Counted from the first letter of the stretch, positions 1,335-58,148 are shown. The stretch: DNA of 64,000 nucleotides from an uncultured delta proteobacterium (GCA_963816145.1 CAWFJP010000031.1:160001-224000); one strand, 5' to 3'. Notes: a model not told the origin generated them from the letters alone. Made by a program: numbers and translations.

Positions 1335-1517
1335 AAATCTGGGGCCAGGCCTTTCAATCTTAACAATCATCCAGCCCCTTTCTCGCTCTCAATTTCATAA
1401 CCTCTTGCTCGCGATCGCCGCGCCTTCCGGCCGGCAGGACACGTAAGTTCGCCCACGCGGTCTGCGGGCGTCCTCGCCCGCCCAGGCCGCAGTCGGTGCC
1501 GGCGATGGCGTTTTCTC
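1335..1517 (-). repeat. MetE-II 3'-end repeat, copy 1, with terminal motif GGGGCCAGGCCTTTCAATCTTAACAATC
   Basis: Minus strand reads ENAIAGTDCGLGGRGRPQTAWANLRVL; aligns by eye with seven other copies. Confidence 0.85.
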
Positions 1518-1578
1518 ATGTTTAAGGAATAACCATCGGAACCGAGCGCGGGCACGTGTTTGCGCAACGGGCGGTGCC

Positions 1579-1884
1579 TTATGTTGAGCTACGTTCTTGC
1601 CAATAACGAGGACGCCGTTTTCCGTGGGCTACGGCGAGAACAACAACCTCTTCGCCGTGCAGCTCGTAGATAATCGAATAGGGGAATTTACGAACGATGA
1701 ATCGCCGCCGTTGGTTATCGAACTTCGGCCAGCGCAGCGGGCTCTGCGAGATGAGACGGACGCCGCGGTCTACTTCAGTTTCAAAGTTTGCAGCTAATGT
1801 GGCGCCGCGATCATGATACCACGAATAAGCTGCGGCATAGTCTTCGGAAGCGCCCGGATGAAACGTAACCTTAGCGAGAGCCAC
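1579..1884 (-). CDS. Type II toxin, RelE/ParE family
   Basis: 101 aa; RRFIVRKFPYSIIY and VLAVAHGKRRPRYW; overlaps the upstream antitoxin. Confidence 0.9.
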   Translation of the reverse strand: MALAKVTFHPGASEDYAAAYSWYHDRGATLAANFETEVDRGVRLISQSPLRWPKFDNQRRRFIVRKFPYSIIYELHGEEVVVLAVAHGKRRPRYWQERSST

Positions 1885-2110
1885 GAATCCGTTCTCTCGC
1901 TCGAGACTTTACAGCGGCCCAAGGTATGGGGCGGACGATTCCTTGTTTGACTTCATCGGAGCGGCGTTCGACTTCCGCACCCCAAGCTGCATCGACATCG
2001 TCGTCGCTCTGCGGATCTAGGCTCGCCAGTAGTTCCTCGACGATTTCGAGTCGATCGTTTTCGGGAAGTCGTTTGGCTGCGTTGACAATGTCTTTGGCAG
2101 GGCGTGTCAT
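1871..2110 (-). CDS. Putative addiction module antitoxin
   Basis: 79 aa acidic; LPENDRLEIVEELLASL, AAWGAEVERR and PIPW are typical of ParE-linked addiction module components. Confidence 0.85.
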   Translation of the reverse strand: MTRPAKDIVNAAKRLPENDRLEIVEELLASLDPQSDDDVDAAWGAEVERRSDEVKQGIVRPIPWAAVKSRARERIRGSR

Positions 2111-2203
2111 GGATCAAACCTCACAATTTCAGTCGGTACAGTAAAACCCCGCTCTTTTAGCCGGTTACCGAGCAGGACTTAAGTTTATTACCATTTCCAG
2201 AGG

Positions 2204-2250
2204 GGCGCCAGGGTCATAGGCGCCAGGGCCTGAGTATTGACTTGTTAGCT
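2204..2250. repeat. REP-like terminal motif (GGCCTGAGTATTGA) with a local duplication
   Basis: GGCGCCAGGG occurs twice; the motif recurs near 5037, 32168 and (reverse) 34225-34240. Confidence 0.55.
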
Positions 2251-2368
2251 ATCAGAATATTCTGTACCGCTCGACTTGAGTCCATTGAGGGGCTCTCGCT
2301 AAATGAAGAGGCGTCAATTGTTTGTATTGAACATCGTGAGCGTCAATGACGAATAACTATTCGTCATA

Positions 2369-2686
2369 TCACCCCGCTTTCAGTTCGCGTTCCAACCGTT
2401 CCGCGAGCCATATTCGGGCAAGGGTCGTCGCGTCCGTTGTTCGCTGGCGCGCAAGCTTGCTCAGCACGGCCTTCATGGCCGGCGGAAGACGCATATTGAG
2501 TTGGGCGGTATTGTCCTGGAAAATCGCTTCTCGAAGAACCTCGTCTAAATCGTTGTGATCCTCGACGACTTCAGATACGCCCGTTTCTAGCCGATCGAAT
2601 ACGTCATGGGATTTTGTCCAGCGGATAACCTCTTCATCCGTCGACTTGCTCGTCAGGCGGGAAGCTTTTCGATTTGTCTTTTTCAT
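2369..2686 (-). CDS. Putative antitoxin with C-terminal ribbon-helix-helix (CopG/BrnA-like)
   Basis: 105 aa; QLNMRLPPAMKAVLSKLARQR...LARIWLAERL; ATGA overlap with the upstream gene. Confidence 0.7.
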   Translation of the reverse strand: MKKTNRKASRLTSKSTDEEVIRWTKSHDVFDRLETGVSEVVEDHNDLDEVLREAIFQDNTAQLNMRLPPAMKAVLSKLARQRTTDATTLARIWLAERLERELKAG

Positions 2687-2940
2687 CTTCGGTGTCTCCG
2701 ATAACGCCTTTTTTGGGCTTCGGTCATGCCGTTCATATGAAAAACTCTTAGCCGATGGTCCGGTAAAACACGATAGACAACATGGAGGTATGATCCGCTT
2801 AAATTCCTTCCGAGCAATTCATAGACCTCGTCAAGCCCGCGTTGACTGCGAATCTTCAAGTAATCCGCCGCTAACAGTTCATAAAAGTCTTGTTTGGTGT
2901 AGCCGTGCCGAAACGCGGAGCTGGTGAATACGGCCTCCAT
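2683..2940 (-). CDS. Putative BrnT-like type II toxin
   Basis: YELLGRNLSGSYLHVVY and RVFHMNGMTEAQKRRYRR; toxin-first two-gene layout; ATG 2940 chosen over TTG 2958. Confidence 0.65.
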   Translation of the reverse strand: MEAVFTSSAFRHGYTKQDFYELLAADYLKIRSQRGLDEVYELLGRNLSGSYLHVVYRVLPDHRLRVFHMNGMTEAQKRRYRRHRR

Positions 2941-3014
2941 TGAGCGGGATTCTAGCAATTGCTATACGTCACCGCAAACCTCAATCGACTGTTCTCGCCG
3001 CAAGGGAATCAACT

Positions 3015-3165
3015 GGGGCCAGGCCTTTCAATCTTAACAATCTTCCGGCCGCTTTCTCGCCCTCATTTCCACAACTTTTTGCTCGCGATCGCCGCGCCGT
3101 CGCGCAGGACAGGTAACTTCGCCCACCCGATCTGCGGGTGTACTCGCCCGCGTAGGCGCCAGTCG
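3015..3165 (-). repeat. MetE-II 3'-end repeat, copy 2
   Basis: Reads DWRLRGRVHPQIGWAKLPVLRDGAAIASKKLWK* followed by the same terminal motif. Confidence 0.85.
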
Positions 3166-3220
3166 AGCGGGCGCCAAGGGGCCGTAGCCACGCACACTCG
3201 CCTCGGTGCCCGGCAGTGCT

Positions 3221-4777
3221 TTAACCTGCCGGCACTTTGGCCACGGGCTTGCCGCGGAGCCCTGCCTTAACAAGCTGCGCGAGAAATTCGGCGAACGGCG
3301 CAATGTTCTGCCGCACGCTCGCATCTTCAAGAGCAGCCATGTAGGCATGGCGCCGCTCCAAAGGCACCACTGTCCAGGGGTAACCGCCTGAAGCCAGCAT
3401 CACGTTCATCAGGAAGCGGCCGATACGGCCGTTGCCGTCCATATAGGGGTGGATATAGACGAAGATGAAATGCCCGAGCACGACCCGCACCGACGGCTCG
3501 GATTCCTGCGTCAGCATCTCGAAAAATACCGGCATGGCATCGCGCACCGCTTTGTAGTCGGGCGGAACGTGCATTGAGCGCCGGATATAGACGGGCGCGT
3601 TGCGATGCCCGGCAAGGTCTGCAGGCCGCAGCAAGCCAGCGGTGACGCTCGGTGCAAACATTTCCCGGTACCATGCTCCGTGATCCTCCTCGGCGACGTT
3701 GCCGGGATTCTCGCCGGCCAGCACCCGGCGCACGCTCTTCTGCACGGCCTGGAATGCCAGCCAGTAGCCTCTTGCCGCCAGAGCATTGCGGTGCTCGCGG
3801 TCCTGTTCGTTTGCATCAGGGTTCCAAGTGCCGCCGCGCACCCGCTCGATCAGCGCGGGGCTGACGCGGTAGCCTTCGATCGATAGCGAGTGATAGGCGT
3901 CGGTGACATAAACATCCTGCACATGCTTGAGATAGGTCTCGATATTCTTCGGCCGTCCCGGCGATTCAGGAAATTTTTCGATGACGGGGCCGCGCATCTG
4001 CTGCCACGTCAGGCGGATGCGGCCCGCGTAAGGAGACGCTTCGCGCCGGGGAAGCACGAGATTGATCCTGCCGGCGAACGGGTCTTGTTCACGCACGTCG
4101 TAACCGGCAGCGCGCATGGCGCTGACGATGTCATCCGCAATGCGGTCGCGGCCGATGTTGCGGAACGCTCCGGCAAGCCGTCCGGCAATCGTGCTGTGCC
4201 CGCCCTCCAGAAGGCGGTTTAGCACTTCGGAAGCATCGCGGATCGCCGCAAGCGCGGCGCGCGCGTCGGTAGGGTTGTTTTCGAAAAACGCGGGCGAGCT
4301 GGCAATGAGAGAAGCAAGCAGCGAAAACAGCCTCAGCCCTTCTTTCTCCTCGATATCTTTCTCATCCGGGATGGCGGTGCGAACATCCAGAAGCGATGTT
4401 CCGTAGGGAAGCGGTGTCGCGTTGTTGCCCCCTCGCGGCGAGCGCACCACGAGCTGGGGCGGCACCGTTCGGTTGCCGGTATGCAGAGAGAGGGAATGCT
4501 CCGGTGATAGACACCACGCGCGGCCAAAGCGCTCGCGCAGGTAGGCCGCGCAAAAGGCCCAGAACGAGGCGTACCAGGCTGTGCTTTCACCGGCGGCGTC
4601 ATCCGGGCGCGCGGCTATGTACCAGCCCTTGATGACCTCTTGCAGGAAGCCGTTCTTTAGCAGGCGCTCCCGGTGGGCACGGGAAAGATCGGCTGCCCGG
4701 ATCGCGGCAATGCCCTGGTCCTGAAGCGCCTTCAGGGCGTCAAGGGATTCAGCCAGTTTTTCCTGTGGCGATGGCAT
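3221..4777 (-). CDS. Fic family protein with long N-terminal extension
   Basis: 518 aa; HPYMDGNGRIGR Fic catalytic motif. Confidence 0.92.
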   Translation of the reverse strand: MPSPQEKLAESLDALKALQDQGIAAIRAADLSRAHRERLLKNGFLQEVIKGWYIAARPDDAAGESTAWYASFWAFCAAYLRERFGRAWCLSPEHSLSLHTGNRTVPPQLVVRSPRGGNNATPLPYGTSLLDVRTAIPDEKDIEEKEGLRLFSLLASLIASSPAFFENNPTDARAALAAIRDASEVLNRLLEGGHSTIAGRLAGAFRNIGRDRIADDIVSAMRAAGYDVREQDPFAGRINLVLPRREASPYAGRIRLTWQQMRGPVIEKFPESPGRPKNIETYLKHVQDVYVTDAYHSLSIEGYRVSPALIERVRGGTWNPDANEQDREHRNALAARGYWLAFQAVQKSVRRVLAGENPGNVAEEDHGAWYREMFAPSVTAGLLRPADLAGHRNAPVYIRRSMHVPPDYKAVRDAMPVFFEMLTQESEPSVRVVLGHFIFVYIHPYMDGNGRIGRFLMNVMLASGGYPWTVVPLERRHAYMAALEDASVRQNIAPFAEFLAQLVKAGLRGKPVAKVPAG

Positions 4778-4792
4778 CGGTACGTTCCATTA

Positions 4793-4912
4793 TTAGTTTT
4801 TGGTGCCGGATATATGTTAGTTTATTATGTTGTACTATTATTAGTTTATTATGCTGTAGCATTTTTAGTTTATTCTGTCGAGCGTCTTTTAGTCTCTTGT
4901 GCGGGTTGATTT
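4793..4912. repeat. Five phased 24-bp imperfect direct repeats upstream of fic
   Basis: TTAGT starts at 4793, 4817, 4841, 4865 and 4889; the central three share TTAGTTTATT. Confidence 0.85.
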
Positions 4913-4945
4913 TGAGCATATAAGCGAGTGCTAAAGTAAGGCTAA

Positions 4946-5062
4946 GCATAGAGAGCATAGAGCGATCGAGAGCATAGAGGGTCGCATCTTTACTTAAGGC
5001 GTTCGGCTGTCGATTACCCACGGGTTATCGGGCCGAGCCTGGGTATTGAGTTATTTTTTCCC
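4946..5062 (+). repeat. ~90-bp dispersed element, copy 1, preceded by CATAGAG stutter
   Basis: 4973-5062 is nearly identical to 32104-32193. Confidence 0.85.
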
Positions 5063-5281
5063 GACCGACGGGACCCTAGGTACAGGCTCCGGTCTTGAAT
5101 CAATGCAGACGAAAGACCAATGGGCGACCCGAACTCCGTCTTGAGTCGAGTTTGATTTTTGGAAAAGAACTTTGAAAGGCACCGGTGGCGTGCTGATAGC
5201 TGATGGCCGGCGGGCCGTAGACCGTGACTTGGTCCTCTTTTAGCCGGGCATAAATTTTATGCTCGTCATAGCGCTTACGCG

Positions 5282-6343
5282 CTAGCGCCTCTTTCCGTCG
5301 CCGAAAAGCTCCCCGACCAATTTTCGCACCGGCTCGATGTCCTCGTATTTCGCCAAACTCGTCAGCATGTACTTGCCGCCCTCTTTGGGGACCTGTAACT
5401 CCAGGAATTCGAGCATGTCCTTGGGAATATCCGTGCGAAATGAGTTTCTTCCGGTGTTCTTTTGCCAATTGAGTTGACCGTCGCGCGACAAAAACCAGTT
5501 GACGTAAAGCTGCGCCGCATTGGGATGGGGCCCGTCTTTGAACATGCTGATATGACCCGAGCCGCTGGCGATGGCGTCGCCTTCTTTGTCGCTGAAGATT
5601 TGCGCCACCGGCAAACCTTGCTTGCGCGCGCTTGCGGTATTTTCGATCTTCGCCAGCAAGTTGATTTGATATTTCCCCGCCGCCAGCCAATCCATCATCT
5701 GGCGCTCGTCCTGAGCGAAAACAACATCCATCTCGGCCACCAGCCGGCGCAGATATTTGGCCCCAAGATCGTCATCGTAATAGAGGAAGCGCCAACTGCC
5801 GACGTTGCCCAAGCCGCGCGGATCGTTCGACACGAACTTGCCCTTCCACTTGGGGTTGAGCAAATCCCACCAGGACTTGATCTCGCTCGCTTTCACCAAT
5901 CCGGTGTTGATCGCGCCGATCCCCGAGCCGGCATCGCCCTGCGACATGAACACATACCGGTTGTCGCTATCGGCATAAAAATGCTTCTTGCCCCACCACT
6001 TGGATAGATCGCGGACTTCGGGTGAAAGTAGAATCTCGGGCAGCGATTTGAGCGCGCCGGCTTTGTGGTAAAGGATCATCGGCGGACCGCCGCCGACCGC
6101 AACATCGACAAGATACTTGCCCGCGCGTCGCTCGGCGAAAACTTTCTTGGAAAGATCGCTGCCCTGGCCGCCGACGAAATTTATTTTGATTTTTGGATAC
6201 GCGTCGGCGAAGGCCTGAATCGACTTGGCGACGCCGGCCCGCGCCTGCCCATAAATCGTCACTTCGCTTTCCTTCTCGGCAGCGGCGACGAGTTTGTCCC
6301 AATCCGGTTGTGGCTGGGCGAAGACAGCGGGAAGAAAAATCAA
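5282..6343 (-). CDS. ABC transporter extracellular solute-binding protein (iron/thiamine-like cluster); possible frameshift in the signal peptide
   Basis: WDKLVAAAEKE, SWWDLLNPKWKGK, PHPNAAQLYVNWFLSRDGQ; a plausible MRVGSL start lies one base out of frame near 6383. Confidence 0.85.
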   Translation of the reverse strand: MIFLPAVFAQPQPDWDKLVAAAEKESEVTIYGQARAGVAKSIQAFADAYPKIKINFVGGQGSDLSKKVFAERRAGKYLVDVAVGGGPPMILYHKAGALKSLPEILLSPEVRDLSKWWGKKHFYADSDNRYVFMSQGDAGSGIGAINTGLVKASEIKSWWDLLNPKWKGKFVSNDPRGLGNVGSWRFLYYDDDLGAKYLRRLVAEMDVVFAQDERQMMDWLAAGKYQINLLAKIENTASARKQGLPVAQIFSDKEGDAIASGSGHISMFKDGPHPNAAQLYVNWFLSRDGQLNWQKNTGRNSFRTDIPKDMLEFLELQVPKEGGKYMLTSLAKYEDIEPVRKLVGELFGDGKRR

Positions 6344-7205: not shown

Positions 7206-7267
7206 TGCGGCATAGAGGGCCGCTTCGAGCAGAAATCCCAAGGTCATTCCTGCCTGGATGGCCCGAA

Positions 7268-7640
7268 AATCTGCGGCCAGGTCTTTCAGTTTTAACCCTA
7301 GACCGACAATAAAAATTCGCTTCCACTTGGCATCACGTGAAAGATGAACCATTCTCTCCGGGCTATCTGGAATAAGATTTCCTTCCCCCGTCTCGGGGGA
7401 AGGAAGGATGGGGGCCGTCTCCGGCTGCGACTGTTTGCCCCCACCTTCATCCTCCCCCGAGGCGGGGGAGGAAATAAAAAGTCACCGCCCGTTATGCTTC
7501 TTGGCCTCCGTGCACTCCGACTTTGTACTCTCAAACTCAAAAAGAATACGCTTCAGATATTGTCGGTTTAAGGTTAACAATCCTCCAGCCCGTTTCTCAC
7601 CCTCAACTCCACAGCTTCTCACTCGCCATCGCGGCGCCGC
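7268..7640 (-). repeat. MetE-II 3'-end repeat, copy 3 (short), split by MITE A copy 2
   Basis: Removing the MITE restores GGCCAGGTCTTTCAGTTTTAACAATCCTCCAGCCC; reads GAAMASEKLWS*. Confidence 0.8.
7292..7577. mobile_element. MITE family A, copy 2
   Basis: TTAACCCTAGACCGACAATA ... TATTGTCGGTTTAAGGTTAA; TTAA is duplicated relative to the empty site seen at 1360 and 3034. Confidence 0.88.
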
Positions 7641-7648
7641 AGCACCGG

Positions 7649-8386
7649 CTATTTCACACATTCGATGAAGCTGATCGGCGGATAATCCAAAAGGCTCGTC
7701 CAGTACTCCTGGTTCTTTTCCGCCAGCCCGGCCGGCGACAGTCTTGGCGCATGCCAGCGAACCTGGCGAAAGCCCGCCTGACGGAAGGCGTCTTCATGAG
7801 TCGCTACGCTCAGGTAATAGTTTTCGATGTCGAAGGGACCGTCTTCGAGATAAAACGTCCAGGTGATCGGCGCGCCCTCGCGCCAGTCGCCCACCACGGT
7901 AGTTTCGAAGCCGTACTTGCGGTACGAAGGCGCGGCGGGAAAATTCAAGGCCGGGTTGCAGTTCACCGTCAGGAAACGACCGCCTGGTCGCAGCGAGCGC
8001 GCGATGCCATCGCACATCGACTGCAGCTCGTCGCGATTGTGGGCGTAGTTGAGCAGATAAGCGGCCACCGCCAGGTCGAACGGCTCCATGCCGGATAATT
8101 GCCGCGCGTCGCCGACGATATAGTCGATGCCGAGCTGATGCTGGCTCTCCTGACGGCGGGCCAGCTCGATCATGCCCGCGGACAGATCGACGCCGGTCAC
8201 CCGCGCCGCGCCGTGCTGACGAATCATCCTGGTATAAAAACCTTCGCCGCAGGCGACGTCGAGCACCGCCAGGCCGCGCGGATCGGCCATCAACTCCATG
8301 AGCGTGTAGCACTCGATGAAGGTCCGCCAGGGTTGCTGCTTGGAACGCTGGTACTGCTCGGCAATGGGATCGTAGTTCGTGGTCAT
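7649..8386 (-). CDS. Class I SAM-dependent methyltransferase, ToxA-like
   Basis: 245 aa; VLDVACGEG, VTGVDLS, FDLAVAAYLLNYA, LRPGG. Confidence 0.88.
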   Translation of the reverse strand: MTTNYDPIAEQYQRSKQQPWRTFIECYTLMELMADPRGLAVLDVACGEGFYTRMIRQHGAARVTGVDLSAGMIELARRQESQHQLGIDYIVGDARQLSGMEPFDLAVAAYLLNYAHNRDELQSMCDGIARSLRPGGRFLTVNCNPALNFPAAPSYRKYGFETTVVGDWREGAPITWTFYLEDGPFDIENYYLSVATHEDAFRQAGFRQVRWHAPRLSPAGLAEKNQEYWTSLLDYPPISFIECVK

Positions 8387-8404
8387 CAGCGGCTCTACTC
8401 CGGT

Positions 8405-11852: not shown

Positions 11853-12031
11853 CCACTCCACAGCTTCTCACTAGCTATCGCCGCGCCATCGCGCGGGACA
11901 GGTAACTTCGCCCGCGCGATCTGCGGGTGTACGCGCCCGCCTACGCCGTAGTCGTCACGTTAACAAAAGCCGTTGGACAGGTGCGGCCGGTCTGTATTCG
12001 ATACGGCAAACTCGTTGAGGTGAGGAGTGCG
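11853..12031 (-). repeat. MetE-II 3'-end repeat, copy 4, with shared extension
   Basis: Reads DYGVGGRVHPQIARAKLPVPRDGAAIASEKLWS; extension GTTAACAAAAGCCGTTGGACAG is shared with the 34.4 kb copy. Confidence 0.85.
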
Positions 12032-12270
12032 TGTGAGTTGCGCGTCGAGCGGTGAATAACTATACACCACACTGAGAACAGTGTTAGAGTCTTAGTTGAG
12101 CACGAGAATAATCATCGGGTCCTGGCGAAGCTAAATTTGCATGAGTCTACACGATACGCACGATTCCTTTTCCCTGGAAGCCCGAGAGTGACGTAGAGCG
12201 ACCGAACTCCTGGTCGCGCGGCAAGAGGACTTGGTAAATGGTTTCATGATCGAATTGGAGGTAATGCGGA

Positions 12271-34324: not shown

Positions 34325-34522
34325 CAGCCCCATTCTCGCCCTTAGCTCTACAACTTCTTGTTTGCCATCGCGGCGGCTTCCCGCAAAAGACGCAACTTCG
34401 CCCCGGCGGACGGGCGCTGGACTCGCCTGCCTAGGCCGCAGTCGTCGCGTTAACAAAAGCCGTTGGACAGCTACGCCCCGTCTGTTTTCGCCACGGCAAT
34501 CTCGTTGAAGTAGGGGAGTGCG
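34325..34522 (-). repeat. MetE-II 3'-end repeat, copy 5, with shared extension
   Basis: Reads DCGLGRRVQRPSAGAKLRLLREAAAMANKKL*; extension shared with the 11.9 kb copy. Confidence 0.8.
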
Positions 34523-34695
34523 CTTGAGAGGCGAGAGCGTTAAGCAACTAAGCAACCCGTGACCCCGGCGCACTGCTCGGAGCCGGCTCGCTTGCGAGTT
34601 GACACAACGCAGCCCATGCGGCTAAGTTCCAGCGCAAATGGCCGGCGGCGACCGTGCGCGGTTTCTGGCTCAGCCAGACAAAAAAAGGAAATTAT

Positions 34696-37299: not shown

Positions 37300-37446
37300 G
37301 TTTTTTTTGCGCACGCCGCAGGTGCCGAAACCTTCCACAGCTGCGTTTGGTCGGACGATAGTCGAGTCATTGCGCAGCGTCAAGCACAATCAACGTCAGC
37401 ACTTGGGGTTAAATCGTTGCCTTTGATATCGCTGCAGATTCTGGAA

Positions 37447-37605
37447 AAATCTGGGCTTAGGCCTTTCAATCTTAACAATCGTCCAGCCCCTTCCTTGAAC
37501 AACCCTACTGCCCCCGCGAGCAGACCTGTGATGAACCCACTCTGATCGAGTTCGCCGACGCAATCTTCCGGCTTTGCGTTCTGCGCTTTGGGATGTTTTT
37601 TTGAC
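37447..37605 (-). pseudogene. 3' fragment of a NitT/TauT SBP gene joined to the same terminal motif as the MetE-II repeats
   Basis: KKHPKAQNAKPEDCVGELDQSGFITGL followed by GGGGCTGGACGATTGTTAAGATTGAAAGGCC. Confidence 0.7.
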
Positions 37606-38844: not shown

Positions 38845-38915
38845 CTGCGCGCAGCTTGGGCCAGGCGATTTGCGGATGGACGCGGCCGCCTAGCCGCTGT
38901 CGCAACGTTAATCAC
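38845..38915 (-). repeat. MetE-II 3'-end repeat, copy 6 (partial)
   Basis: Reads LGGRVHPQIAWPKLRA. Confidence 0.75.
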
Positions 38916-40831: not shown

Positions 40832-40930
40832 AGCGGAACCCTCGAAGCGATTGCAGTGGCGGGATCAGGTCATGCGATGGCACATTCCGGTCGTTTGCCC
40901 CACGATTGTTAGAAAAGCTTCAAAATCTTG

Positions 40931-41090
40931 GTTTAGGCCCTTCAATCTTAACAATCGTTCAGGTTCTCGGTTCCACAACATCTTGCCGGCGATGGCCGCG
41001 CCCTCGCGCAGCACCCATAACTTCGCCCAAGCAATCTGCGGCTGTACGCGCCCGCCGAGGCCGCAGTCGTCAGGTTAACACAAGCCGTCT
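40931..41090 (-). repeat. MetE-II 3'-end repeat, copy 7
   Basis: Reads DCGLGGRVQPQIAWAKLWVLREGAAIAGKMLWN plus the TTCAATCTTAACAATC terminal motif. Confidence 0.85.
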
Positions 41091-44325: not shown

Positions 44326-44406
44326 GGATCACTTTTACATCCAGACTTTCCAGCTTTTAGTTTTGTTCATCCCGCACGGGCGCTTTTGCATTCAACGCCA
44401 ACGCCA

Positions 44407-51879: not shown

Positions 51880-51898
51880 CCTGATGATCGACAACTGC

Positions 51899-51998: not shown

Positions 51999-52003
51999 CT
52001 CGC

Positions 52004-53935
52004 ATGTGGGACGCCGCCCTAATTGCTCTTGAGAGGTTCGCCGATCCTCTTCATCTAGGCATGCTGCTGGCCGGCGTGCTGGCCGGCACGGTCATCGGCA
52101 TCCTCCCCGGCCTGGGAGGTATCGCCTGCGTCGCCATCCTGCTGCCTTTCATCTATACGCTCGACGTGCACACCGCGATGATCCTGCTGGTCGGATCGCT
52201 GGCGGTGGTTCACACTTCCGATACCATCACCTCGGTGCTGATCGGCACACCAGGTTCCGCCGCGGCCGCCGTGACAATTCTGGATGGTCATCCACTGGCC
52301 AAGCAGGGCCAGGCTGCGCGGGCATTGAGCGCGGCGTTTTTGTCGTCGATGATCGGCGGCCTGATCGGCACGGTTTTTTTGACTCTCTCCCTGCCCATCG
52401 CGCGGCCTCTGGTGCTGCTCTTCGGCTCTCCCGAGTTGTTGATGCTCTGCGTTCTTGGCCTCTCCTTCGCCGGATTTCTCACCGGCGGTGCGCCGCTTAA
52501 AGGCGGGTTGGCCGCTTGCCTGGGGCTGTTGCTGGGCAGCGTCGGCTCCGCTCCCGCGGATGCCGTCGATCGCTATACCTTCGGCCAACTCTATCTGCTT
52601 GACGGCATTCCTCTGGTCGGAGTGGCCTTGGGAATCTTTGGCATCGCGGAGATTGTCGATCTGTTGGCCAAAGGGGGGCAGATAGCCGAGCGAATCCCTT
52701 TGGGACAAGGCTGGCTCCAGGGGGCCAAAGATGTGTGGCAACATTGGGGCATCGTGGTGCGCGGCTCGCTTATCGGCGTGTGGGCGGGCATTCTCCCCGG
52801 CATCGGCGCTACGGCGGGATCCTGGATGGCCTATGGGCACGTGGTCGCCATGGCCCGCGATCGCGAAAAATTTGGCAAGGGCGATATTCGCGGCGTTATT
52901 GGCCCGGAAAGCGCCAACAATTCCGTCGAGGCCGGGGATTTCATCCCGACGCTGCTGTTCAGCGTTCCGGGCGGCGCTCCGTCCGCGATCCTGCTGGGCG
53001 CGTTGTTTTTCTACGGCATTCAGCCCGGCCCGCGCATGGTGCAGGAAAATCTCGATCTGATTTTTACCATCATCTGGAGTTTTGCCATCGCCAATACGAT
53101 CGGCGCCGGGCTGTGTTTTCTCTTGAGCCCGGCGCTGGCGCGGCTCACCTGGATTCCCTTCGCTCGGCTGGCTCCGGCCGTCGTCGTGACGATTTTTTTT
53201 GGCGCCTTTCAAAGCTCCGAGCAGTTCGGCGATATCTACGCTATGATCGGGTTGGGATTGCTCGGCTGGCTCATGAAACAGTTGGGATGGCCACGCGCGC
53301 CTTTTCTCGTCGGCTTCGTCTTGACCAAGCCGACCGAACAGTATCTATGGCTATCGATTGAACGCTATGGCTTCGATTGGCTGTGGCGCCCGGGAGTCAT
53401 AGTTCTTGGTATGTTGTTACTCGCCTCGATAATTTGGATCGTTCGCCAAAAACGCGATGGTAAAGACAGCTCGGCCGAGGAATCCGACGGGGAGGCGGTT
53501 CTCTTGGGAAAACTGCCGTCGGTTGTTTTCACAATTCTAGTTTTGCTTGTCGTGGCGGCAGCGCTTTATGAAGCGCAAAACTTTCCCTACCTGGGCGCGA
53601 TATTTCCAATGGCGGCGACGATTCCGGCGATTTTCATGGCGGCAGCCCAGATCGTTCTTGAAGTGCGCGCCACCCGGGAATCGCCGGGGATCGAGACACG
53701 GAAGAAAACTAAATTGGCCCTCGGTTATATTCTTTCGCTCGTCGCGTATCTCTTGCTGATCTTGTTTTTCGGCTTCGGCATCGCCACCGCGCTTTTCACC
53801 TTCGGTTTTCTTTACGGCTGGGTCCGCGCGGGCTGGTTTACTGCCGCTATCTACACCGGTGTTTTGGTCGGTCTGACCTCGGTCATGAGCTGGCTGCTCG
53901 GCATGCACTGGCCGGGAGGTATCCTGCTCGGATAA
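52004..53935 (+). CDS. tctA: Tripartite tricarboxylate transporter permease TctA with fused C-terminal TctB-like region
   Basis: GILPGLG, LDGHPLAKQG, GPESANN; ~150 extra residues with four TM helices ending WPGGILLG. Confidence 0.88.
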   Translation: MWDAALIALERFADPLHLGMLLAGVLAGTVIGILPGLGGIACVAILLPFIYTLDVHTAMILLVGSLAVVHTSDTITSVLIGTPGSAAAAVTILDGHPLAKQGQAARALSAAFLSSMIGGLIGTVFLTLSLPIARPLVLLFGSPELLMLCVLGLSFAGFLTGGAPLKGGLAACLGLLLGSVGSAPADAVDRYTFGQLYLLDGIPLVGVALGIFGIAEIVDLLAKGGQIAERIPLGQGWLQGAKDVWQHWGIVVRGSLIGVWAGILPGIGATAGSWMAYGHVVAMARDREKFGKGDIRGVIGPESANNSVEAGDFIPTLLFSVPGGAPSAILLGALFFYGIQPGPRMVQENLDLIFTIIWSFAIANTIGAGLCFLLSPALARLTWIPFARLAPAVVVTIFFGAFQSSEQFGDIYAMIGLGLLGWLMKQLGWPRAPFLVGFVLTKPTEQYLWLSIERYGFDWLWRPGVIVLGMLLLASIIWIVRQKRDGKDSSAEESDGEAVLLGKLPSVVFTILVLLVVAAALYEAQNFPYLGAIFPMAATIPAIFMAAAQIVLEVRATRESPGIETRKKTKLALGYILSLVAYLLLILFFGFGIATALFTFGFLYGWVRAGWFTAAIYTGVLVGLTSVMSWLLGMHWPGGILLG

Positions 53936-55332
53936 TGGTAAATTCTCGCACACCCGTCGACGTTTTAGTGATCGGCGGCGGCAACGCGGCGCTGTGCGCA
54001 GCGATCACGGCGCGGCGCCGCGGCGCGCGCGTGCTCTTGCTCGAAAGCGCGACGAAAGATTTTCGCGGCGGCAATAGCCGGCACACGCGCGATATCCGCT
54101 ATATGCACCGGGCGGCCACCGATTATGTCACGGATGCCTACGGTGAAGAGGAGTTCTGGCAGGATCTTCGAGGAGTGACCGGCGGCGCGACCAACGAGCG
54201 GCTCGCTCGCTTGACCATTCGCGAGTCCGAAACCCTGGGCGATTGGATGCCGGCCAACGGCGTGCGCTGGCAAAAGCCGCTGCGCGGCACGCTCCATCTG
54301 ACGCGCAGCAATCTCTTCATGCTCGGCGGCGGCAAGGCGATGATGAACGCCTACTATGACACGGCGGTGAAACTCGGTGTGGAGATCGCCTACGAAACCG
54401 AGGTGCGTGAATTGAAAATGATCGACGGTCGATTTGCCTCCGCCGTGGCGAGTCGCAACGGCTCGTCGAAGGAATTCACGGCGAAGGCCCTCGTCGTCGC
54501 GTCCGGCGGCTTTGAAGCGAACATTCCCTGGTTGAAGGAATACTGGGGCGACGCCGCCGAAAATTTCATCATCCGCGGCACGCCGCACAATCAGGGCGGC
54601 ATGCTGAAAGAGCTGCTCAGACACGGCGCTAAGCCGGAGGGGGACCCGCGCGGCTGCCACGCCGTGGCGCTCGACGCCCGCGCACCGAAATTCGACGGCG
54701 GCATCGTCACCCGCTTGGACAGCGTGCCGTTCGGCATCGTCGTCAATAAAGCGGCGAAGCGCTTTTACGACGAGGGCGAAGATTTCTGGCCGAAGCGTTA
54801 CGCGATCTGGGGAAAACTCATCGCCGAGCAGCCCGAGCAGATCGCTTATTCCATCATCGATGCCAAAGGACTGCCGCACTTCATGCCGTCGGTGTTTCCA
54901 CCGGTGGAAGCGGGCTCGATCGCCGAGCTGGCCGCGGCTTGGGAACTCGATCCGCGCGCGCTCGAGGCGGTCGTCGATGGATACAACCGCTCCGCGCGCG
55001 GCGGGCGATTCGATCCCGGCAGCCTGGACGACTGCCATACGGACGGCTTGGTTCCGCCGAAGAGCCATTGGGCGCGGCCCATCGACACGCCGCCATATTA
55101 TGGTTATCCGCTCAGGCCGGGCATTACGTTTACTTACCTCGGCGTCACCGTCAACGAACAGGCGCAAGTGATCATGCAAGACGACGCGCCGGCAAAAAAT
55201 GTCTTTGCCGCGGGCGAAGTGATGGCCGGCAACATTCTCGGCCGCGGTTATCTCGCGGGCTTTGGCTTGACGATCGGTTCGGTGTTTGGCCGGATCGCCG
55301 GCCAGGAGGCGGCGCGCTGTGCCGGATTTTGA
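53935..55332 (+). CDS. tcuA: FAD-dependent tricarballylate dehydrogenase
   Basis: IGGGNAALCAA, RGGNSRHTR, DARAPKFDGGIVTRLD, PGITFTYLG. Confidence 0.92.
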   Translation: MVNSRTPVDVLVIGGGNAALCAAITARRRGARVLLLESATKDFRGGNSRHTRDIRYMHRAATDYVTDAYGEEEFWQDLRGVTGGATNERLARLTIRESETLGDWMPANGVRWQKPLRGTLHLTRSNLFMLGGGKAMMNAYYDTAVKLGVEIAYETEVRELKMIDGRFASAVASRNGSSKEFTAKALVVASGGFEANIPWLKEYWGDAAENFIIRGTPHNQGGMLKELLRHGAKPEGDPRGCHAVALDARAPKFDGGIVTRLDSVPFGIVVNKAAKRFYDEGEDFWPKRYAIWGKLIAEQPEQIAYSIIDAKGLPHFMPSVFPPVEAGSIAELAAAWELDPRALEAVVDGYNRSARGGRFDPGSLDDCHTDGLVPPKSHWARPIDTPPYYGYPLRPGITFTYLGVTVNEQAQVIMQDDAPAKNVFAAGEVMAGNILGRGYLAGFGLTIGSVFGRIAGQEAARCAGF

Positions 55333-56431
55333 TCTCGTCAAAGACGGCGCGCGGCAGATGACGATCTGCAACGCCTGCCGCTACTGCGAAGGGTACTGCG
55401 CGGTGTTTCCGGCGATGGAGCAGCGCCGGGTTTTCACCAAAGCCGATCTCACCTATCTCGCCAATCTTTGCTTCGATTGCCGCGACTGTTATTACGCCTG
55501 CCAGTACGCGCCGCCCCATGAGTTCGGCGTCAATATTCCCAAGTTGATGTCCGAATTGCGCGCCGATACCTATCGCGAGTTCACCTGGCCGGTGATTTTG
55601 TCGGGTCTGTTCAAGCGCAACCTGCTGGCGGTAAGCGGGATCACCGCCGCGTCGATTATGATCATTTTCGGTCTCGTGCTCGGGTTTCAAGGCTCGGAGG
55701 TTTTGCTCGGTACCCACCTCGGCGAAGGAGCTTTTTACCGCGTGGTGCCGTTTGTCGCCATGACCGTGCCGCCGTCGCTCATCGCGCTCTACGGTTTTAT
55801 AGTTTTCATCATCGGCGCGGCGCGCTTTTGGCGCGAGACTCAGGGACCGATTTCCGCGTTGGTCGATTTGCCCGCGCTGTGGCGCGCGACCAAAGACGCT
55901 TTCGGTCTCGCCTATATGAAAGGCGGCGGCGCCGGCTGCAACTATCCCGGCGAGAGTTTTTCGCGCTTAAGAATGTGGCTGCACCATTTGGTTTTTTATG
56001 GTTTTCTTCTCGACCTGGCCGCCACGACCGTCGCAGCTTTCTACGACCACTTTCTCGGTTGGCAGGCGCCTTATCCCTATTTCAGCGCGCCGGTGGTGCT
56101 CGGCACCGCCGGCGGCGTGGGTTTGATCATCGGCACCGCGGGTCTGCTTTGCTTGAAATGGAAAAGCGATCGCGCGCCCGCGGACGCAAGCATGTTCAAC
56201 ATGGACGCGGCGTTTCTCTTGCTGTTATTTCTAACCGCCGTTACCGGTCTTATATTGCTCGCGTTCCGCGAAACCGCGGCGATGGGAACGCTGCTGGTCA
56301 TCCATTTGGGCGCGGTCGCGGGACTGTTCATTACGTTGCCTTATGGAAAGTTTGCCCACGTGGTCTATCGTTACGCCGCATTGGTGCGCTACGCGATCGA
56401 GCAGAGGCGAGTCGAAACACACTCTTCATAA
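55319..56431 (+). CDS. tcuB: Tricarballylate utilisation 4Fe-4S membrane protein
   Basis: CNACRYCEGYCAVFP, CYYACQYAPPHEF, PYGKFAH. Confidence 0.92.
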   Translation: MPDFDLVKDGARQMTICNACRYCEGYCAVFPAMEQRRVFTKADLTYLANLCFDCRDCYYACQYAPPHEFGVNIPKLMSELRADTYREFTWPVILSGLFKRNLLAVSGITAASIMIIFGLVLGFQGSEVLLGTHLGEGAFYRVVPFVAMTVPPSLIALYGFIVFIIGAARFWRETQGPISALVDLPALWRATKDAFGLAYMKGGGAGCNYPGESFSRLRMWLHHLVFYGFLLDLAATTVAAFYDHFLGWQAPYPYFSAPVVLGTAGGVGLIIGTAGLLCLKWKSDRAPADASMFNMDAAFLLLLFLTAVTGLILLAFRETAAMGTLLVIHLGAVAGLFITLPYGKFAHVVYRYAALVRYAIEQRRVETHSS

Positions 56432-56491
56432 AGTCCCCTTGTGAGTGATACGCAGTATGTGGGGATAAGGGGGCTTTGTTGACTAAGTGGA

Positions 56492-57862
56492 CTAGTTCGT
56501 GTCCCAGCGCAACGCGGCGCGCACCGCCGCAGCGTCATGAGCCTCGTCGACACGACGCGAGCGGCTTTCGTAAGCTTGCCAAGTCGCTGCGTCCCAAATG
56601 CGCGTGCTCAGGCGAGCCTTGAGCAGCTGACGCACGCGAGGTAAATCGCCTAGCTGCAAGGCAGCCATGACCATGATCTGGTCGTAGAGGTCTTGTTGGA
56701 CGTGGCTCGCACCGAGTTCCCCGTGGCGCTGGCGCACGGCCAGCATCCGCTCAAGCGCTTCGCGGGGCTTGTCCTGGTAAAAAGCCGCCGCGGCCTGGGC
56801 GAGCTCGTGCGCCAGCGCCGCCTGTGTGGAGCTCGTCCCGGCAGAGCGCAGGTATTCGATCGCTGACTGCACCGCCGATAGCCGCCCGCTGCGCATCAGT
56901 GCCATGACGTGATGCATGGAGGTAAACCATACCGTGCTTTGCGTAGCGTTGAGCAAAGAGGCTTGCGCCAGGCGCTCCCAACGCGCCAGCCCGACGTCAA
57001 CACCCTGGAATTCCAGGCGCGCCAGCAACGAGGCGCCATTTTGAACGTCAATGTAAAAGGTCGACGACTTCGGATAAACCTCGCGGTCAAACAGATCGAG
57101 AACCTCGTCGAAACGGCCCTGCAAAAACTTAAACAAGCTCAAATGCCACCACAGGTGGCCGCGAAACAGGTTATAGTCGTTGAGAAACCGCGCCGCATCG
57201 CTGAGCAGTTCGATGCCCTCCCGGACACGGCTTTGCATCTCGAACACATGGACCAGGCCATGCAAGGCCCAGAGATCCTGCGGCTGCAAAGCCAGCGCCT
57301 CGCGGGCGCAACGCTCGGCCACTTCGTACTGGCCAACCTCTTCCATCGCGAAGGCATGAGCCGAAAGAAAGTGCCCATAACCGGGCGTCCGGGGGCCCCA
57401 ATGGCCGGCGACTCCCGCGCTCACTTCGGCTTGATGTCGTTTGTCACCGGTCCAGAAAAGCGTGCCTGTGTGTTGACGCAAAGCCAGCAAATCCAATGGC
57501 CACTCGACCAGGATTTGCTCCCAGGCCGCCGCACGGGCGGAAAGATCCTGCGCAATCCAGGCACGCAAGGCTTCTTGGTGCAAACGCTCCCGGGGATTGG
57601 CGGGCAAAGCCTCCGCCTGCCGCAGGTGTGCCCGTGCCCTGGGCTGGGCGTCGAGCGTATATTCGGTCATGAGAGAGTAGCCCTTGAGTACATGAGCAAG
57701 GACAAACTCCGGAAACTCCTGCAACAGTGCGTCCAGGCGATCCCCTGTCCCCAGACGGTAGTAGTAGATGTCGTCAATCAGGGCGTCGAAACGCTCAACA
57801 GCTGCGGAGCTGGCCGCAGTGAGCGAAAGGCCACGAATATCCATGATGTCAACGTGGGTCAT
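56492..57862 (-). CDS. Tetratricopeptide repeat protein 38 (TTC38)-like protein
   Basis: AFAMEE.G.Y..AE, DLWALH, HLWWHLSL, GASHVQQDL. Confidence 0.8.
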   Translation of the reverse strand: MTHVDIMDIRGLSLTAASSAAVERFDALIDDIYYYRLGTGDRLDALLQEFPEFVLAHVLKGYSLMTEYTLDAQPRARAHLRQAEALPANPRERLHQEALRAWIAQDLSARAAAWEQILVEWPLDLLALRQHTGTLFWTGDKRHQAEVSAGVAGHWGPRTPGYGHFLSAHAFAMEEVGQYEVAERCAREALALQPQDLWALHGLVHVFEMQSRVREGIELLSDAARFLNDYNLFRGHLWWHLSLFKFLQGRFDEVLDLFDREVYPKSSTFYIDVQNGASLLARLEFQGVDVGLARWERLAQASLLNATQSTVWFTSMHHVMALMRSGRLSAVQSAIEYLRSAGTSSTQAALAHELAQAAAAFYQDKPREALERMLAVRQRHGELGASHVQQDLYDQIMVMAALQLGDLPRVRQLLKARLSTRIWDAATWQAYESRSRRVDEAHDAAAVRAALRWDTN

Positions 57863-58057
57863 AAATTCTGTAGAGGAAATTCAAACCGACTTTTTATCCT
57901 GACCGAGCAGTATAGCCGGACCCGGCAGTTGTCAATCGCGTTTCTGTTTGATGAAATTCGCGACTTTGCTTCGGTCGGATAATGGAATAGCGGGCAGCTA
58001 TTCCTTCTAAACTTTCTTCCTTCCTGTTTGGTTCATCCCGCACAGGCACTCTTGAAT

Positions 58058-58148
58058 TCAACTCCACAACTTCGTGCTCGCTATCGCCGCGCCTGCGCGC
58101 AGGACGCGCAACTTGGCCCAGGCGATTTGCGCAGGACGCGGCGCCCGT
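58058..58148 (-). repeat. MetE-II 3'-end repeat, copy 8
   Basis: Reads QIAWAKLRVLRAGAAIASTKLWS*. Confidence 0.85.

Follow-up and report, generated by a model that had tools for sequence, protein, structure and literature searches.

The dispersed repeats analysed here are best read as old 3' ends of a single MetE-like gene that serial 3'-end displacement has moved away from it. They are fossils, dead copies of the gene's last 35 codons scattered among accessory genes, in and around a stretch of DNA of 64,000 nt (the window). Patterns of this kind are known, but the present one is unusually large and lacks an integrase.

Co-oriented gene ends lie behind an intact donor

The host is an uncultured bacterium of soil and wetland, whose array stands behind one enzyme gene and spans 72 kb of accessory genes. 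A repeat search sorted the window's repeats into the direct-repeat families D3, D7, D9, D13 and D15. The eight copies of the preliminary description all exist and all lie on the minus strand, as the repeat families and both profile and blastn searches agree, and minus-strand reading yields the peptide variants quoted there. A tail profile was built from these eight copies and run against both strands of the whole 7.82-Mb genome (G000). With the end of the intact gene included, the tail family has 10 members, every one of them on the minus strand of C31:154,293-224,499 (E 1e-4 to 2.5e-26). Eight of the 10 fall inside the window, where the profile matches cover 1393-1497, 3067-3166, 7607-7666, 11855-11958, 34346-34447, 38848-38903, 40971-41072 and 58061-58141. 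The C31 copies match the profile by construction, and an independent blastn search gave identical places. Beyond the array the profile matched a 36-nt scrap (C29:6266-6301) and the ends of paralogous genes (C31:500156 and C9:111837); the remaining genome-wide matches outside the array were three, each with an E-value of at least 0.15.

The donor had been placed outside the window, and it is, by just 395 nt. It is an intact 401-aa MetE-like (Meth_synt_2) gene at G000:C31:224395-225600 (-), equivalent to L010:395-1600(-), which starts past the right edge of the window on the fossils' strand and stands at the head of the array. All nine C31 fossils lie 3' of it and are co-oriented with it (9/9). 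The repeat had been taken for the tail of methionine synthase II. Its identification as a MetE-like C-terminal segment stands: Pfam PF01717 (Meth_synt_2) matches donor residues 197-392 (E 3e-13; 50.2 bits, cut-off 21), and the donor tail aligned with the C-terminus of PDB 3rpd (E 4e-8). The enzyme name is not certified, since the donor falls below the curated equivalog level for methionine synthase (best NCBIfam model NF003317, 71.7 bits versus a cut-off of 406). On these profile scores the donor is best named MetE-like and not a certified methionine synthase. The intact paralogue within the window is counted as cargo and not as the donor (Table 1).

Cassettes reach 22 kb and are multigene. 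They carry ordinary genes for transport and metabolism, on both strands, and toxin-antitoxin pairs occur too. A glutathione-transferase/hydrolase/methyltransferase-like block is found at 58181-61004 of the window and again, inverted, at 28154-30875, and arm-plus-tail units (see below) recur in the array. A second local family occupies C31:115-150 kb and consists of partial ends of HigA-like genes.

Table 1. Fossil tails, associated modules and neighbouring genes, in window coordinates
Feature	Position	Strand	Remarks
Fossil tail, type II, longest in window	1389..1517	-	gene-profile positions 1082-1206; 4-nt insertion
Flank module A ('m2', contains GATTGTTAAGATTGAAAGGCC)	1328..1394	-	directly after fossil stop codon
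Fossil tail, type II	3064..3165	-	profile positions 1104-1205
Flank module A	3003..3068	-	
Short tail fragment	7607..7666	-	tail-profile positions 40-104; abuts stop codon of methyltransferase gene
Flank module A, variant, 3'-truncated	7561..7608	-	
Flank module A without tail	7258..7318	-	
Fossil tail, type II	11855..11954	-	profile positions 1104-1203; SBP_bac_5 gene (10192-11712) comes after
Arm, non-gene sequence (~100 nt) adjoining the tail's 5' edge	11950..12049	-	common to two other copies with different neighbours
Fossil tail, type II, most decayed	34343..34445	-	orthologous copy in G003 (L017:13138)
Arm, second copy	34440..34538	-	
Intact donor paralogue, 46% identity	34654..35886	+ (opposite strand)	cargo, not donor
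Flank module A without tail (37.4 kb)	37440..37502	-	
Fossil tail, type I, 3' end cut	38847..38903	-	profile positions 1103-1160
Fossil tail, type II	40971..41069	-	~25 nt of arm precedes
Flank module A	40916..40977	-	
Flank module B remnant, ~5 nt of tail left	44332..44400	-	repeat family D19
Fossil tail, type I, youngest-looking	58058..58142	-	profile positions 1121-1206; 85-87% identical to intact tails
Flank module B, begins TTGAATTCAA	57998..58060	-	repeat family D19; same module behind intact gene in G000
First cargo gene, FAD_binding_2	62771..64000	-	directly behind intact donor

Nearly all fossils run to the gene's end and about half begin in a hot zone

A full-gene profile of 1206 positions was used to place the ends of 33 fossils. 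All but one (32/33) reach position 1190 or beyond, at most 16 positions from the gene's 3' end; the sole 5' piece is a weak partial match (L016:13956, E 7e-4). The 5' ends are not constant and range over positions 936-1140. Sixteen of the 33 fall at 1088-1104 (17 nt), where about 2.7 would be expected if ends were spread evenly over 936-1140, although the copies are not independent; the other 17 lie outside, and the hot zone itself is about 20 nt wide, not one nucleotide. At least nine different upstream sequences abut the tail at this zone. In an alignment of 105 sequences, the hot zone falls just inside the conserved block of the gene family (positions 1076-1153, mean column identity 0.78-0.94 in 13 six-column bins), which is preceded by a dip to 0.64 at 1070-1075; the gene-wide mean is 0.76. 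The tail is the beginning of the most conserved DNA stretch in the 3' part of the family. The Cys codon just after the CGACTGCGG edge is that of the zinc ligand of the family.

Two tail types can be told apart. Identity to the 10 intact tails is 0.84-0.90 for type I fossils and 0.73-0.78 for type II fossils, and the latter are 0.78-0.84 identical among themselves. Both encode the same peptide and differ in codon usage alone. Third codon positions account for 57-62% of the sites at which the five clearest type II copies of C31 depart from the resident tail, an excess partly expected anyway because the intact gene kept changing synonymously after each split. The fossil at L015:15693 is a type I-II-I mosaic, which indicates exchange between tails by a route that the mosaic does not give. 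Fossils are often frameshifted or truncated. The orthologous fossils C31:194346 and L017:13138 are roughly 70% identical (aligned rows, by eye) within an 89%-identical block, suggesting that such fossils evolve about as fast as silent DNA.

Short modules border the tails on both sides. Three tails (1.3, 3.0 and 40.9 kb) have the GATTGTTAAGATTGAAAGGCC motif after them and a fourth (7.6 kb) has a variant form of it, so the shared end motif previously assigned to four copies holds for three and, as a variant, for one. Module A, which carries the motif, also occurs without a tail at two places, and the tail at 58 kb has a different 3' flank, module B, of which there is a further remnant (Table 1). 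As a motif, module A is linear and conserved; it contains an internal direct repeat, has no fold and could be a protein-binding site; no consensus fold was found among 19 flank copies. On the 5' side, three G000 tails, each with a different neighbouring gene, have the same arm of about 100 nt before them, an arrangement suggestive of a conserved element end; the arm is also present in copies from G003, G019 and L137. The fossil at 38847..38903 forms a tail-to-tail joint with the end of a methyltransferase-like gene, and the same arrangement is seen in G017 and G018.

The same geometry recurs across the genus

Six contigs from six genomes carry the intact gene together with fossils, and 19/19 of these fossils lie downstream of the gene, 18/19 on its strand. 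Differences between species in the flank behind the intact gene do not track gene identity: G019, G003, G002 and G022 have module A there, G000, G017, G014 and G006 have module B, and L055 has a third form. In G017 the intact gene has behind it an SBP_bac_5 gene that in G000 comes after the window's fossil at 11855 (92.7% identity). Over 7.3 kb, metagenome contig L137 matches C31:154157-161481 at 99.1% identity; beyond that it changes to an arm-tail-flank unit whose cargo is different, indicating that the array still varies between close strains.

Proposed serial displacement and its possible agents

Under serial displacement, accessory DNA would have entered repeatedly between the gene body and the gene's last ~100 nt. 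Each incoming piece would bring its own tail copy and a short 3' flank, so that the gene was kept intact, and the incumbent tail with everything behind it would be pushed downstream to decay. Repeated rounds, followed by segmental duplication, inversion and deletion within the pile, would give the 72-kb array. Only insertions that restore the gene would survive, and therefore only old tails would accumulate, as the 32 of 33 fossils that are 3' ends suggest.

The geometry, its recurrence across the genus and the absence of a recombinase in cis are shown by the data. The agent is something we infer, and we tentatively favour recombination through tail homology, of the Rhs type and with no dedicated integrase, over an integrase that was lost or acts in trans. 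The tail itself would most likely be the recombination substrate, in ordinary homologous recombination on circular or linear intermediates carrying tail and cargo; in short Logan contigs we saw neither a circular form nor a tail-to-tail deletion joint. The passages on rhs 'dissociated tips' in Jackson et al. 2009 (PMC2935791) describe an intact gene followed by co-oriented 3' fragments with extra genes after each; the fragments keep variable lengths of conserved sequence, no integrase figures in the account, and the route proposed there is homologous recombination via circular intermediates that shunts the old end downstream. The MetE-like array is alike in that 3' fragments of the intact gene, co-oriented and of variable lengths, come after it with no integrase, and we counted the variable 5' ends for an rhs-like model. 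Also counted in its favour were the two tail lineages, the mosaic tail, the flank that differs between species, the SBP_bac_5 gene that stands behind the intact gene in one genome and behind a fossil in another, the position of the hot zone just inside the conserved block, and the divergence of L137. It differs in three respects. As those passages describe them, rhs tips are variable toxin domains with immunity genes, whereas the displaced MetE-like tail is a conserved part encoding the same residues; what varies here is the cargo, up to 22 kb of unrelated genes for metabolism, transport and toxin-antitoxin pairs; and the donor, a MetE homologue, is enzyme-like and no polymorphic toxin. Several observations count against tail homology as the agent. 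A pure form of it predicts junctions that are inherited but scattered, which leaves the cluster at 1088-1104 unexplained; the arm precedes three different neighbours; the conserved module A could bind a protein; and the tails, now only 70-90% alike, are too diverged for efficient RecA exchange today.

The next candidate, possible but doubtful, is site-specific tandem accretion, in which an attP would carry the gene's last ~105 nt and flank with its core near CGACTGCGG, and the integrases would have been lost (CIME-like decay) or would act in trans. The clustered 5' ends with their many upstream contexts, the arm conserved before different neighbours and the conserved flank modules A and B all argue for it, as does a tyrosine recombinase ~480 nt upstream of the second, 82%-identical copy of the gene that G014 carries. 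The part of Guedon et al. 2017 (PMC5704250) on tandem accretion and CIMEs describes integrase-less decayed islands stacked at a target gene's 3' end, with direct repeats of that end bounding successive blocks, the newest block adjoining the intact gene, and blocks that may lack integration genes. Each block of the MetE-like array is likewise bounded by direct repeats copying the target gene's 3' end, but none of the arrays examined contained an integrase, the repeat edges do not look constant and there are no transfer or phage genes. Two or three stacked integrative elements are usual; here there are 10 repeats over 72 kb. A recombinase in cis is absent: all 12 PF00589 (tyrosine recombinase) matches of G000 are on contigs other than C31, serine recombinases have no match anywhere in G000, and the array contigs of G019, G003, G017 and G018 have no integrase match. 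Among the 150 recombinase matches listed, of 256 in 31 genomes, only G021:C6:24132 lies behind a gene copy, 36 kb away. No mobility, phage, conjugation or transposition gene was found among 50 ORFs scanned, whose cargo is of the ordinary kind, and the boundaries form a zone plus a wide spread instead of a single nucleotide. Of the insertion-scar (att-like) model in the preliminary description, then, the geometry survives, with the donor at the head and co-oriented fossils downstream of it, in relatives too, while the part that invoked islands and an integrase finds no support.

Duplication and decay is unlikely to account for the array. Many tandem copies of the gene, or of fossil-bearing blocks, would have lost their 5' sides by deletion and left tails. 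Co-oriented tandem pairs of the gene family are indeed common in other taxa (e.g. L093, L105, L106, L125, L129 and L132), segmental duplication is evident in the inverted block and the recurring arm-plus-tail units, and the HigA-like family offers a local parallel. Random decay, however, should leave heads and middles as well as 3' ends. A blastx search of the 900 nt 5' of 31 fossils, with the donor protein and five paralogues, found no whole gene body, and the longest upstream gene extension was about 90 nt. Duplication and decay also leaves the species-to-species difference in the flank behind the intact gene unaccounted for.

Quite improbable is a sequence-specific nuclease that breaks one site in the gene, after which the left end would be repaired from a cargo-bearing homologue and the right end nibbled and joined without homology. 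It would make an integrase unnecessary and suits a hot zone that is not a point, in a region rich in GC-rich palindromes (GCCGGC, CCTAGG and GCGGCCGC), but no candidate nuclease was identified and the reading is pure inference.

Very improbable, too, is that tail and flank together function as non-coding DNA, as a promoter, 5' leader or terminator that was exapted from the end of the gene and retained before cargo. A functional edge could account for the pile-up of 5' ends, and co-oriented ORFs start 45-330 nt downstream at 10-11 of 15 units (ORF map, by eye). Against this stand the near-silent divergence of orthologous fossils and their frequent frameshifts and truncations. In window 1-12200 no promoter-like or terminator-like site coincides with a tail-flank unit, and totals are at shuffle level (promoter-like 8 versus 5.0 +/- 2.3; terminator-like 14 versus 13.8 +/- 4.2). 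The units have no Rfam match, and the flanks no consensus fold.

The attC sites of integrons are imperfect hairpins with paired RYYYAAC and GTTRRRY cores. An integron-type array without integrase (CALIN), served by the two full-length IntI genes at C15:184057-185001 and 202187-203131 (468 and 466 bits, cut-off 265), would resemble ours in its co-oriented repeats between accessory genes and its toxin-antitoxin cassettes, but both this and a REP/RAYT-amplified element are scarcely credible, since the repeat is demonstrably a gene end; three units folded on both strands gave z of -2.0 to +0.4 with no long imperfect hairpin and no end-to-end pairing (a fold test only, not an attC covariance model); the cassettes are long, multigene and on both strands; the repeats by the IntI genes are 9-nt periodic GTTCAA/GTTCCA palindromes, unrelated to the tails and missing from the array; and the REP/RAYT model put forward earlier fails on a C31 without Y1 transposase (nine Y1_Tnp matches in the genome, all elsewhere), on 469 REP-like pattern matches genome-wide of which none falls in C31:134,697-272,048, which spans the whole array, and on the lack of a conserved fold.

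A possible portable attachment site

A further reading, which we consider fairly unlikely, is that the last ~120 nt of the MetE-like gene and its short flank are the portable attachment site of a gene-capture system. If so, this would be an attachment-site system confined to the genus, with no integrase in cis, an integron-like accumulator in which a conserved coding tail replaces attC. It would be driven by a so far unrecognised enzyme, a recombinase or nuclease that acts at the CGACTGCGG edge, or by host recombination alone, and the cassettes could be excised, shuffled and exchanged between strains via their tails.

The tails form a local repeat behind an intact MetE-like gene

The preliminary description had listed eight minus-strand segments related to the end of a methionine synthase II gene, and all eight places were confirmed by repeat finding, direct reading and blastn. 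When five copies were compared with the whole 7.82-Mb source genome (G000), blastn matched 19 places, 14 of which lie on contig CAWFJP010000031.1 (C31) between 152,220 and 224,508, every one on the minus strand. A tail profile built from the eight copies and run against G000 recovered ten members on C31:154,293-224,499, all on the minus strand and eight of them inside the window (C31:160001-224000); elsewhere in G000 it found only a 36-nt scrap (C29:6266-6301), paralogous gene ends and three hits with E >= 0.15. Its confinement to one stretch and its uniform orientation far exceed what chance would give.

An intact 401-aa ORF, terminating ...ENVIAGTDCGLGGRVHPQIAWAKLRALREGAAIASKKLWS, ends with the copy at C31:224,398. 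This donor gene starts 395 nt past the right edge of the window, which bears out the expectation that it lay outside. All nine fossils on C31, the decayed copies of its 3' tail, are situated 3' of the donor and on the same strand. The donor matches Pfam Meth_synt_2 (50 bits) and the B12-independent methionine-synthase-like structure 3rpd, the latter in an alignment running through the tail, but reaches only 71.7 bits on the best NCBIfam methionine-synthase model, whose cut-off is 406. We therefore call it MetE-like and assign no specific substrate; the earlier reading of the tails as methionine synthase II C-termini stands as to the MetE-like match and misses the NCBIfam methionine-synthase cut-off. 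The cysteine of GTDCG, which we take to be a zinc ligand in MetE, is predicted to be one in the donor. The paralogue at 35.8 kb (46% identity to the donor) is cargo, not the donor.

Each unit consists of the last ~100 nt of the gene and a ~60-nt 3' flank. Flank module A, which contains GATTGTTAAGATTGAAAGGCC, occurs eight times on C31, in three cases with no tail, and is the flank of the intact gene in genomes G019, G003, G002 and G022. Module B, which starts TTGAATTCAA, takes that place in G000, G017, G014 and G006, and locus L055 has a third flank form. Each of modules A and B natively flanks the intact gene in some of the species, and the form found there does not track gene identity across species. 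In three G000 copies with differing neighbour genes, ~100 nt of non-gene sequence, the arm, precedes the tail; it also precedes tail copies in G003, G019 and metagenome contig L137. For annotation, the fossils yield spurious ORFs.

Features of the array and its surroundings (window positions unless a contig or locus is named)
Feature	Position	Strand	Remarks
Donor, intact MetE-like gene	C31:224395-225600 (L010:395-1600)	-	module B behind it
Type I tails	38.8, 58.1 kb	-	module B behind the 58-kb fossil; also most fossils of G017, G044, G045
Type II tails	1.4, 3.1, 11.9, 41.0 kb; C31:154293	-	also L017:13138 and L137
More decayed type II tails	34.3 kb; L011:6115		0.71 and 0.68 identical to intact tails
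Module B remnant	44.3 kb
Spurious ORFs (examples)	3034-3348; 34256-34573	-
MetE-like paralogue	34654-35886	+	cargo
~300-aa paralogues	29960-30874; 31158-32039; 37931-38833	+
~300-aa paralogues	45933-46844; 58223-59134	-
PrpD-like/TctA/TctB/TcuB cluster	49124-56431
Inverted segmental duplication	28154-30875; 58181-61004
91-nt direct repeat, family D17	4973-5063; 32104-32194		also L136:968-1058
Synteny breaks at units	C31:171802, 194324, 198903, 218181
HigA-like gene, intact	C31, ~115.2-115.5 kb
HigA-like partial copies	C31, 140.2, 144.3, 148.0, 149.6 kb	+
~23-nt motif	C31:139845, 140352, 144541, 147227, 148275, 149651	+
~23-nt motif	C31:154158	-
~23-nt motif	C17:73832, 80816, 82614; C28:12306
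Repeats beside the two IntI genes	C15:185444-185970, 203293-204600
Recombinase, second gene copy and paralogue	G014:C2:521380-525500 (L028)

The tails belong to two lineages

Measured against 10 intact orthologous tails, type I fossils are 0.84-0.90 identical to the intact tails, and type II fossils are 0.73-0.78 identical to them and 0.78-0.84 among themselves; the two types agree in the residues they encode. Of the differences between the type II copies on C31 and the resident tail, 57-62% are at third codon positions (45% in the 34.3-kb copy), compared with 78-100% in intact orthologues, and part of such an excess is to be expected from continued synonymous change in the intact gene. Type II tails are no closer to a second gene subfamily (0.72-0.75), and a search for an intact gene ending in a type II tail was negative among 10 orthologues and six copies of that subfamily (~80% identical). 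Metagenomes scanned for a 22-nt type II pattern yielded four contigs: L134 and L135 hold intact family members that are otherwise unrelated, and L136 and L137 come from close strains of G000 and carry fossils themselves. Neither the relatives nor these matches include an intact type II gene. Fossil L015:15693 has a type II middle between two type I ends, a mosaic that shows exchange between tails.

Only 3' ends survive, downstream of the gene, across the genus

Gene-family matches at E <= 1e-20 were found in 37 of 41 genomes, and donor orthologues in genomes of the same genus, publicly labelled 'uncultured delta proteobacterium', 'Syntrophobacter sp. SbD2' or 'Candidatus Binatia bacterium', show 85-93% identity. 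The tail-plus-flank query matched 21 of the genus's 31 genomes, with matches to intact tails counted. The unpublished genome G005 enters these two tallies and the genus-wide PF00589 tally, and nowhere else. We scanned 43 loci from relatives with the tail profile and a full-gene profile. Six contigs (from G000, G003, G017, G019, G043 and G045) hold the intact gene together with fossils, and on these all 19 fossils are downstream of the gene and 18 are on its strand, the exception being L021:17660. In the set of 33 fossils, which leaves out hits cut by contig ends and paralogous genes, 32 extend to profile position 1190 or beyond (of 1206) and one is cut at its 3' end; 5' pieces amount to a single weak hit (L016:13956, E 7e-4). 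The 70 loci from beyond the genus (L064-L133) contained intact genes and tandem paralogues only, with no flank A and no arm.

Since the surviving pieces are only 3' ends, always downstream, on the gene's strand and with native flanks, the array most probably reflects serial displacement of the gene's 3' end. Newer insertions would then lie nearer the gene, and the stacked tails would give a readable order of events. In the proposed comparison of empty with filled sites, no fossil was found behind the gene within 80 kb in G014, 15 kb in G021 or 18 kb in G008, but at the species level there is no clean filled-versus-empty pair, because every relative has lost synteny to either side of the gene.

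Junctions cluster at the edge of a conserved block

Fossil 5' ends range over profile positions 936 to 1140, and 16 of 33 fall at 1088-1104, where ~2.7 would be expected if they were evenly spread (binomial p ~1e-9, a value that overstates the clustering because the fossil copies are related). At least nine different upstream sequences abut the tail there. Many junctions retain a few extra decayed gene bases, so that the hot zone is ~20 nt wide and not a point. Among 105 aligned family members, column identity is 0.78-0.94 at positions 1076-1153 (13 six-column bins), dips to 0.64 at 1070-1075 and is 0.76 gene-wide; the hot zone thus sits just inside the conserved block of the family. For 31 fossils, the 900 nt upstream were compared by blastx with the donor protein and its five paralogues; no gene body was found, the longest extra stretch being ~90 nt. 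At L020:894 (G017), L041:1228 (G012) and L048:1591 (G020), the end of another gene and the tail form an in-frame fusion at a shared GTD; these fusions read ...GENTLMIGTD, a related motif from another gene, and at least one has an internal stop codon. Judged by their sequences, they are apparent chimeric gene ends. The hot zone is the main fact that stands without explanation.

The cargo is ordinary and no recombinase lies nearby

Of the 50 array ORFs scanned against Pfam, 17 were without a match; recombinase, transposase, phage and transfer families were not represented. The cargo identified by Pfam includes solute-binding proteins (SBP_bac_1/5/8, NMT1 and TctC types), FAD oxidoreductases, two PrpD-like proteins, TctA, an adenylation-carrier (NRPS-like) protein of 1200 aa, a chloride channel, a sigma-54 activator, a Schlafen-type helicase, a ParE/antitoxin pair and a Fic protein; a TcuB equivalog and a thiamine-pyrophosphate enzyme are also present. 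One cluster, which combines a PrpD-like protein, a TctA/TctB fusion and the TcuB equivalog (427 bits, cut-off 247), looks like tricarboxylate use. Five paralogues of a secreted ~300-aa protein carry an N-terminal hydrophobic segment and a methyltransferase-like glycine motif, both read in the sequences; 58223-59134, the only copy scanned, matched nothing in Pfam or NCBIfam. These paralogues often directly adjoin a tail remnant.

The integrase or RAYT that earlier insertion models led us to seek nearby did not appear: C31 has no tyrosine recombinase (12 matches elsewhere in G000) and no Y1 transposase (nine elsewhere), and the genome-wide family search found no serine recombinase anywhere in G000. 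PF00589 was searched in five relatives and is absent from the array contigs of G019, G003, G017 and G018. Genus-wide, among the 150 PF00589 matches listed of 256, only G021:C6:24132 is behind that genome's gene, 36 kb off. In G014, a tyrosine recombinase lies ~480 nt upstream of a second, 82%-identical gene copy, followed by a 48%-identical paralogue, and may together with that copy form a mobile unit carrying the gene.

The array differs between close strains

Blocks common to the G000 array and relatives are mostly single genes of 85-94% identity, reordered; an SBP_bac_5 gene stands behind the intact gene in G017 and behind the 11.9-kb fossil in G000 (92.7% identity). Several synteny breaks coincide with units, though single-gene blocks end intergenically anyway. 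L136 is collinear with C31:161321-166029 at 99.0% identity. L137 is 99.1% identical to C31:154157-161481, beyond which it carries an arm-tail-flank unit and cargo absent from G000; the array therefore differs between strains only ~1% apart. Window 1-10000, or part of it, is present in 20 public runs from 19 studies. For window 1-20000, four public runs gave short contigs, whose loose ends at tails are cross-matches from other tails or the intact gene, and few joints, with short sides or low depth.

Both copies of an inverted segmental duplication, which carries a glutathione transferase, an alpha/beta hydrolase and a methyltransferase-like gene, are 87-91% identical to a single copy directly behind the G019 gene. 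The D17 repeat, at 98% identity the most alike pair in the array, recurs in the close-strain contig L136 and could represent either recent copying or a small mobile element.

Left of the window, C31:115172-149677 holds a second local family of co-oriented partial gene ends, with an intact HigA-like antitoxin gene and partial copies that are internally deleted or tail-only and have a common ~100-nt 3' flank. These copies point towards the minus-strand MetE-like array, which ends at ~152 kb. Past a ~23-nt motif with the core CTAGACCTGACCC, preceded by TGCTACGAC, similarity stops in 11 of 11 copies, and the copy at C31:154158 is ~20 nt before the point at which L137 diverges from G000. The motif may be a junction or regulatory site.

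Explanations of the array

The array is like rhs C-terminal displacement in that a 3' end is displaced, but here the displaced end is conserved and not variable; the pattern of stacked units behind a gene is like tandem accretion at gene 3' ends. Williams reportedly addressed tRNA sublocation in 2002. What is distinctive here is the combination of 10 copies over 72 kb, genus-wide spread, a conserved displaced end and a junction hot zone. A literature search on genomic islands or integrases of Binatia/Binatota found nothing relevant among the 10 records listed, and we make no claim that the locus is unpublished.

As to the agent, homology-driven insertion is the most likely of the explanations considered, though somewhat less likely than not. 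In its favour are the variation in fragment length, the mosaic tail, the swapping of flanks, the ordinary cargo, the lack of any recombinase nearby and the position of the hot zone at the conserved block's edge; such insertion has been proposed for rhs loci in PMC2935791. A site-specific enzyme acting at the CGACTGCGG edge, its genes lost or trans-acting, is possible but rather unlikely; the junction cluster with its many upstream contexts, the conserved arm and a conserved linear flank motif argue for it, and CIME accretion, as treated in PMC5704250, is a model for such lost or trans-acting genes. Duplication and decay evidently contributes, as interior blocks are visibly duplicated, but it cannot account for the absence of 5' pieces and is improbable as the full account. 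A site-specific break followed by end joining is more doubtful still. That the units are an exapted functional element is very improbable, since the promoter/terminator scan of window 1-12200 found nothing on units and totals at shuffle level.

An integron or REP element is scarcely credible. G000 has two integron integrases, both on C15. Three units folded as ssDNA on both strands gave z-scores of -2.0 to +0.4, no better than shuffles, and no end-to-end (attC-like) hairpin; 19 flank-A copies have no consensus fold, Rfam at gathering thresholds returned no match in the window and both flanks, and the tRNA and tmRNA scan was empty. The repeats beside both IntI genes belong to an abundant REP-like repeat of 9-nt periodic GTTCAA/GTTCCA palindromes, often in inverted pairs, for which a loose pattern has 469 hits in G000 and none on C31 between 134,697 and 272,048. 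We rejected both readings because the three folded units show no hairpin, the flank-A copies have no consensus fold, and the IntI-adjacent repeats differ and are absent from the array; with no Y1 transposase on C31 either, the REP/RAYT model of the preliminary description finds no support. The same GTTCCA/GTTCAA-type words occur behind the 82%-identical gene copy next to the integrase in G014 (L028, ~12670).

Serial displacement of the gene's 3' end would show how a large uncultured soil/wetland bacterium builds a hypervariable accessory region of at least 70 kb without visible mobile-element machinery. That the process was long-running, and that close strains differ in the array to this day, is shown by the mosaic tail, both tail lineages and the strain variant at 99% identity. 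Should a specific enzyme lie behind the clustered junctions, the system would count as a new site-specific one; otherwise, the locus would be a large, clean case of rhs-type 3'-end displacement also shaping ordinary enzyme genes.
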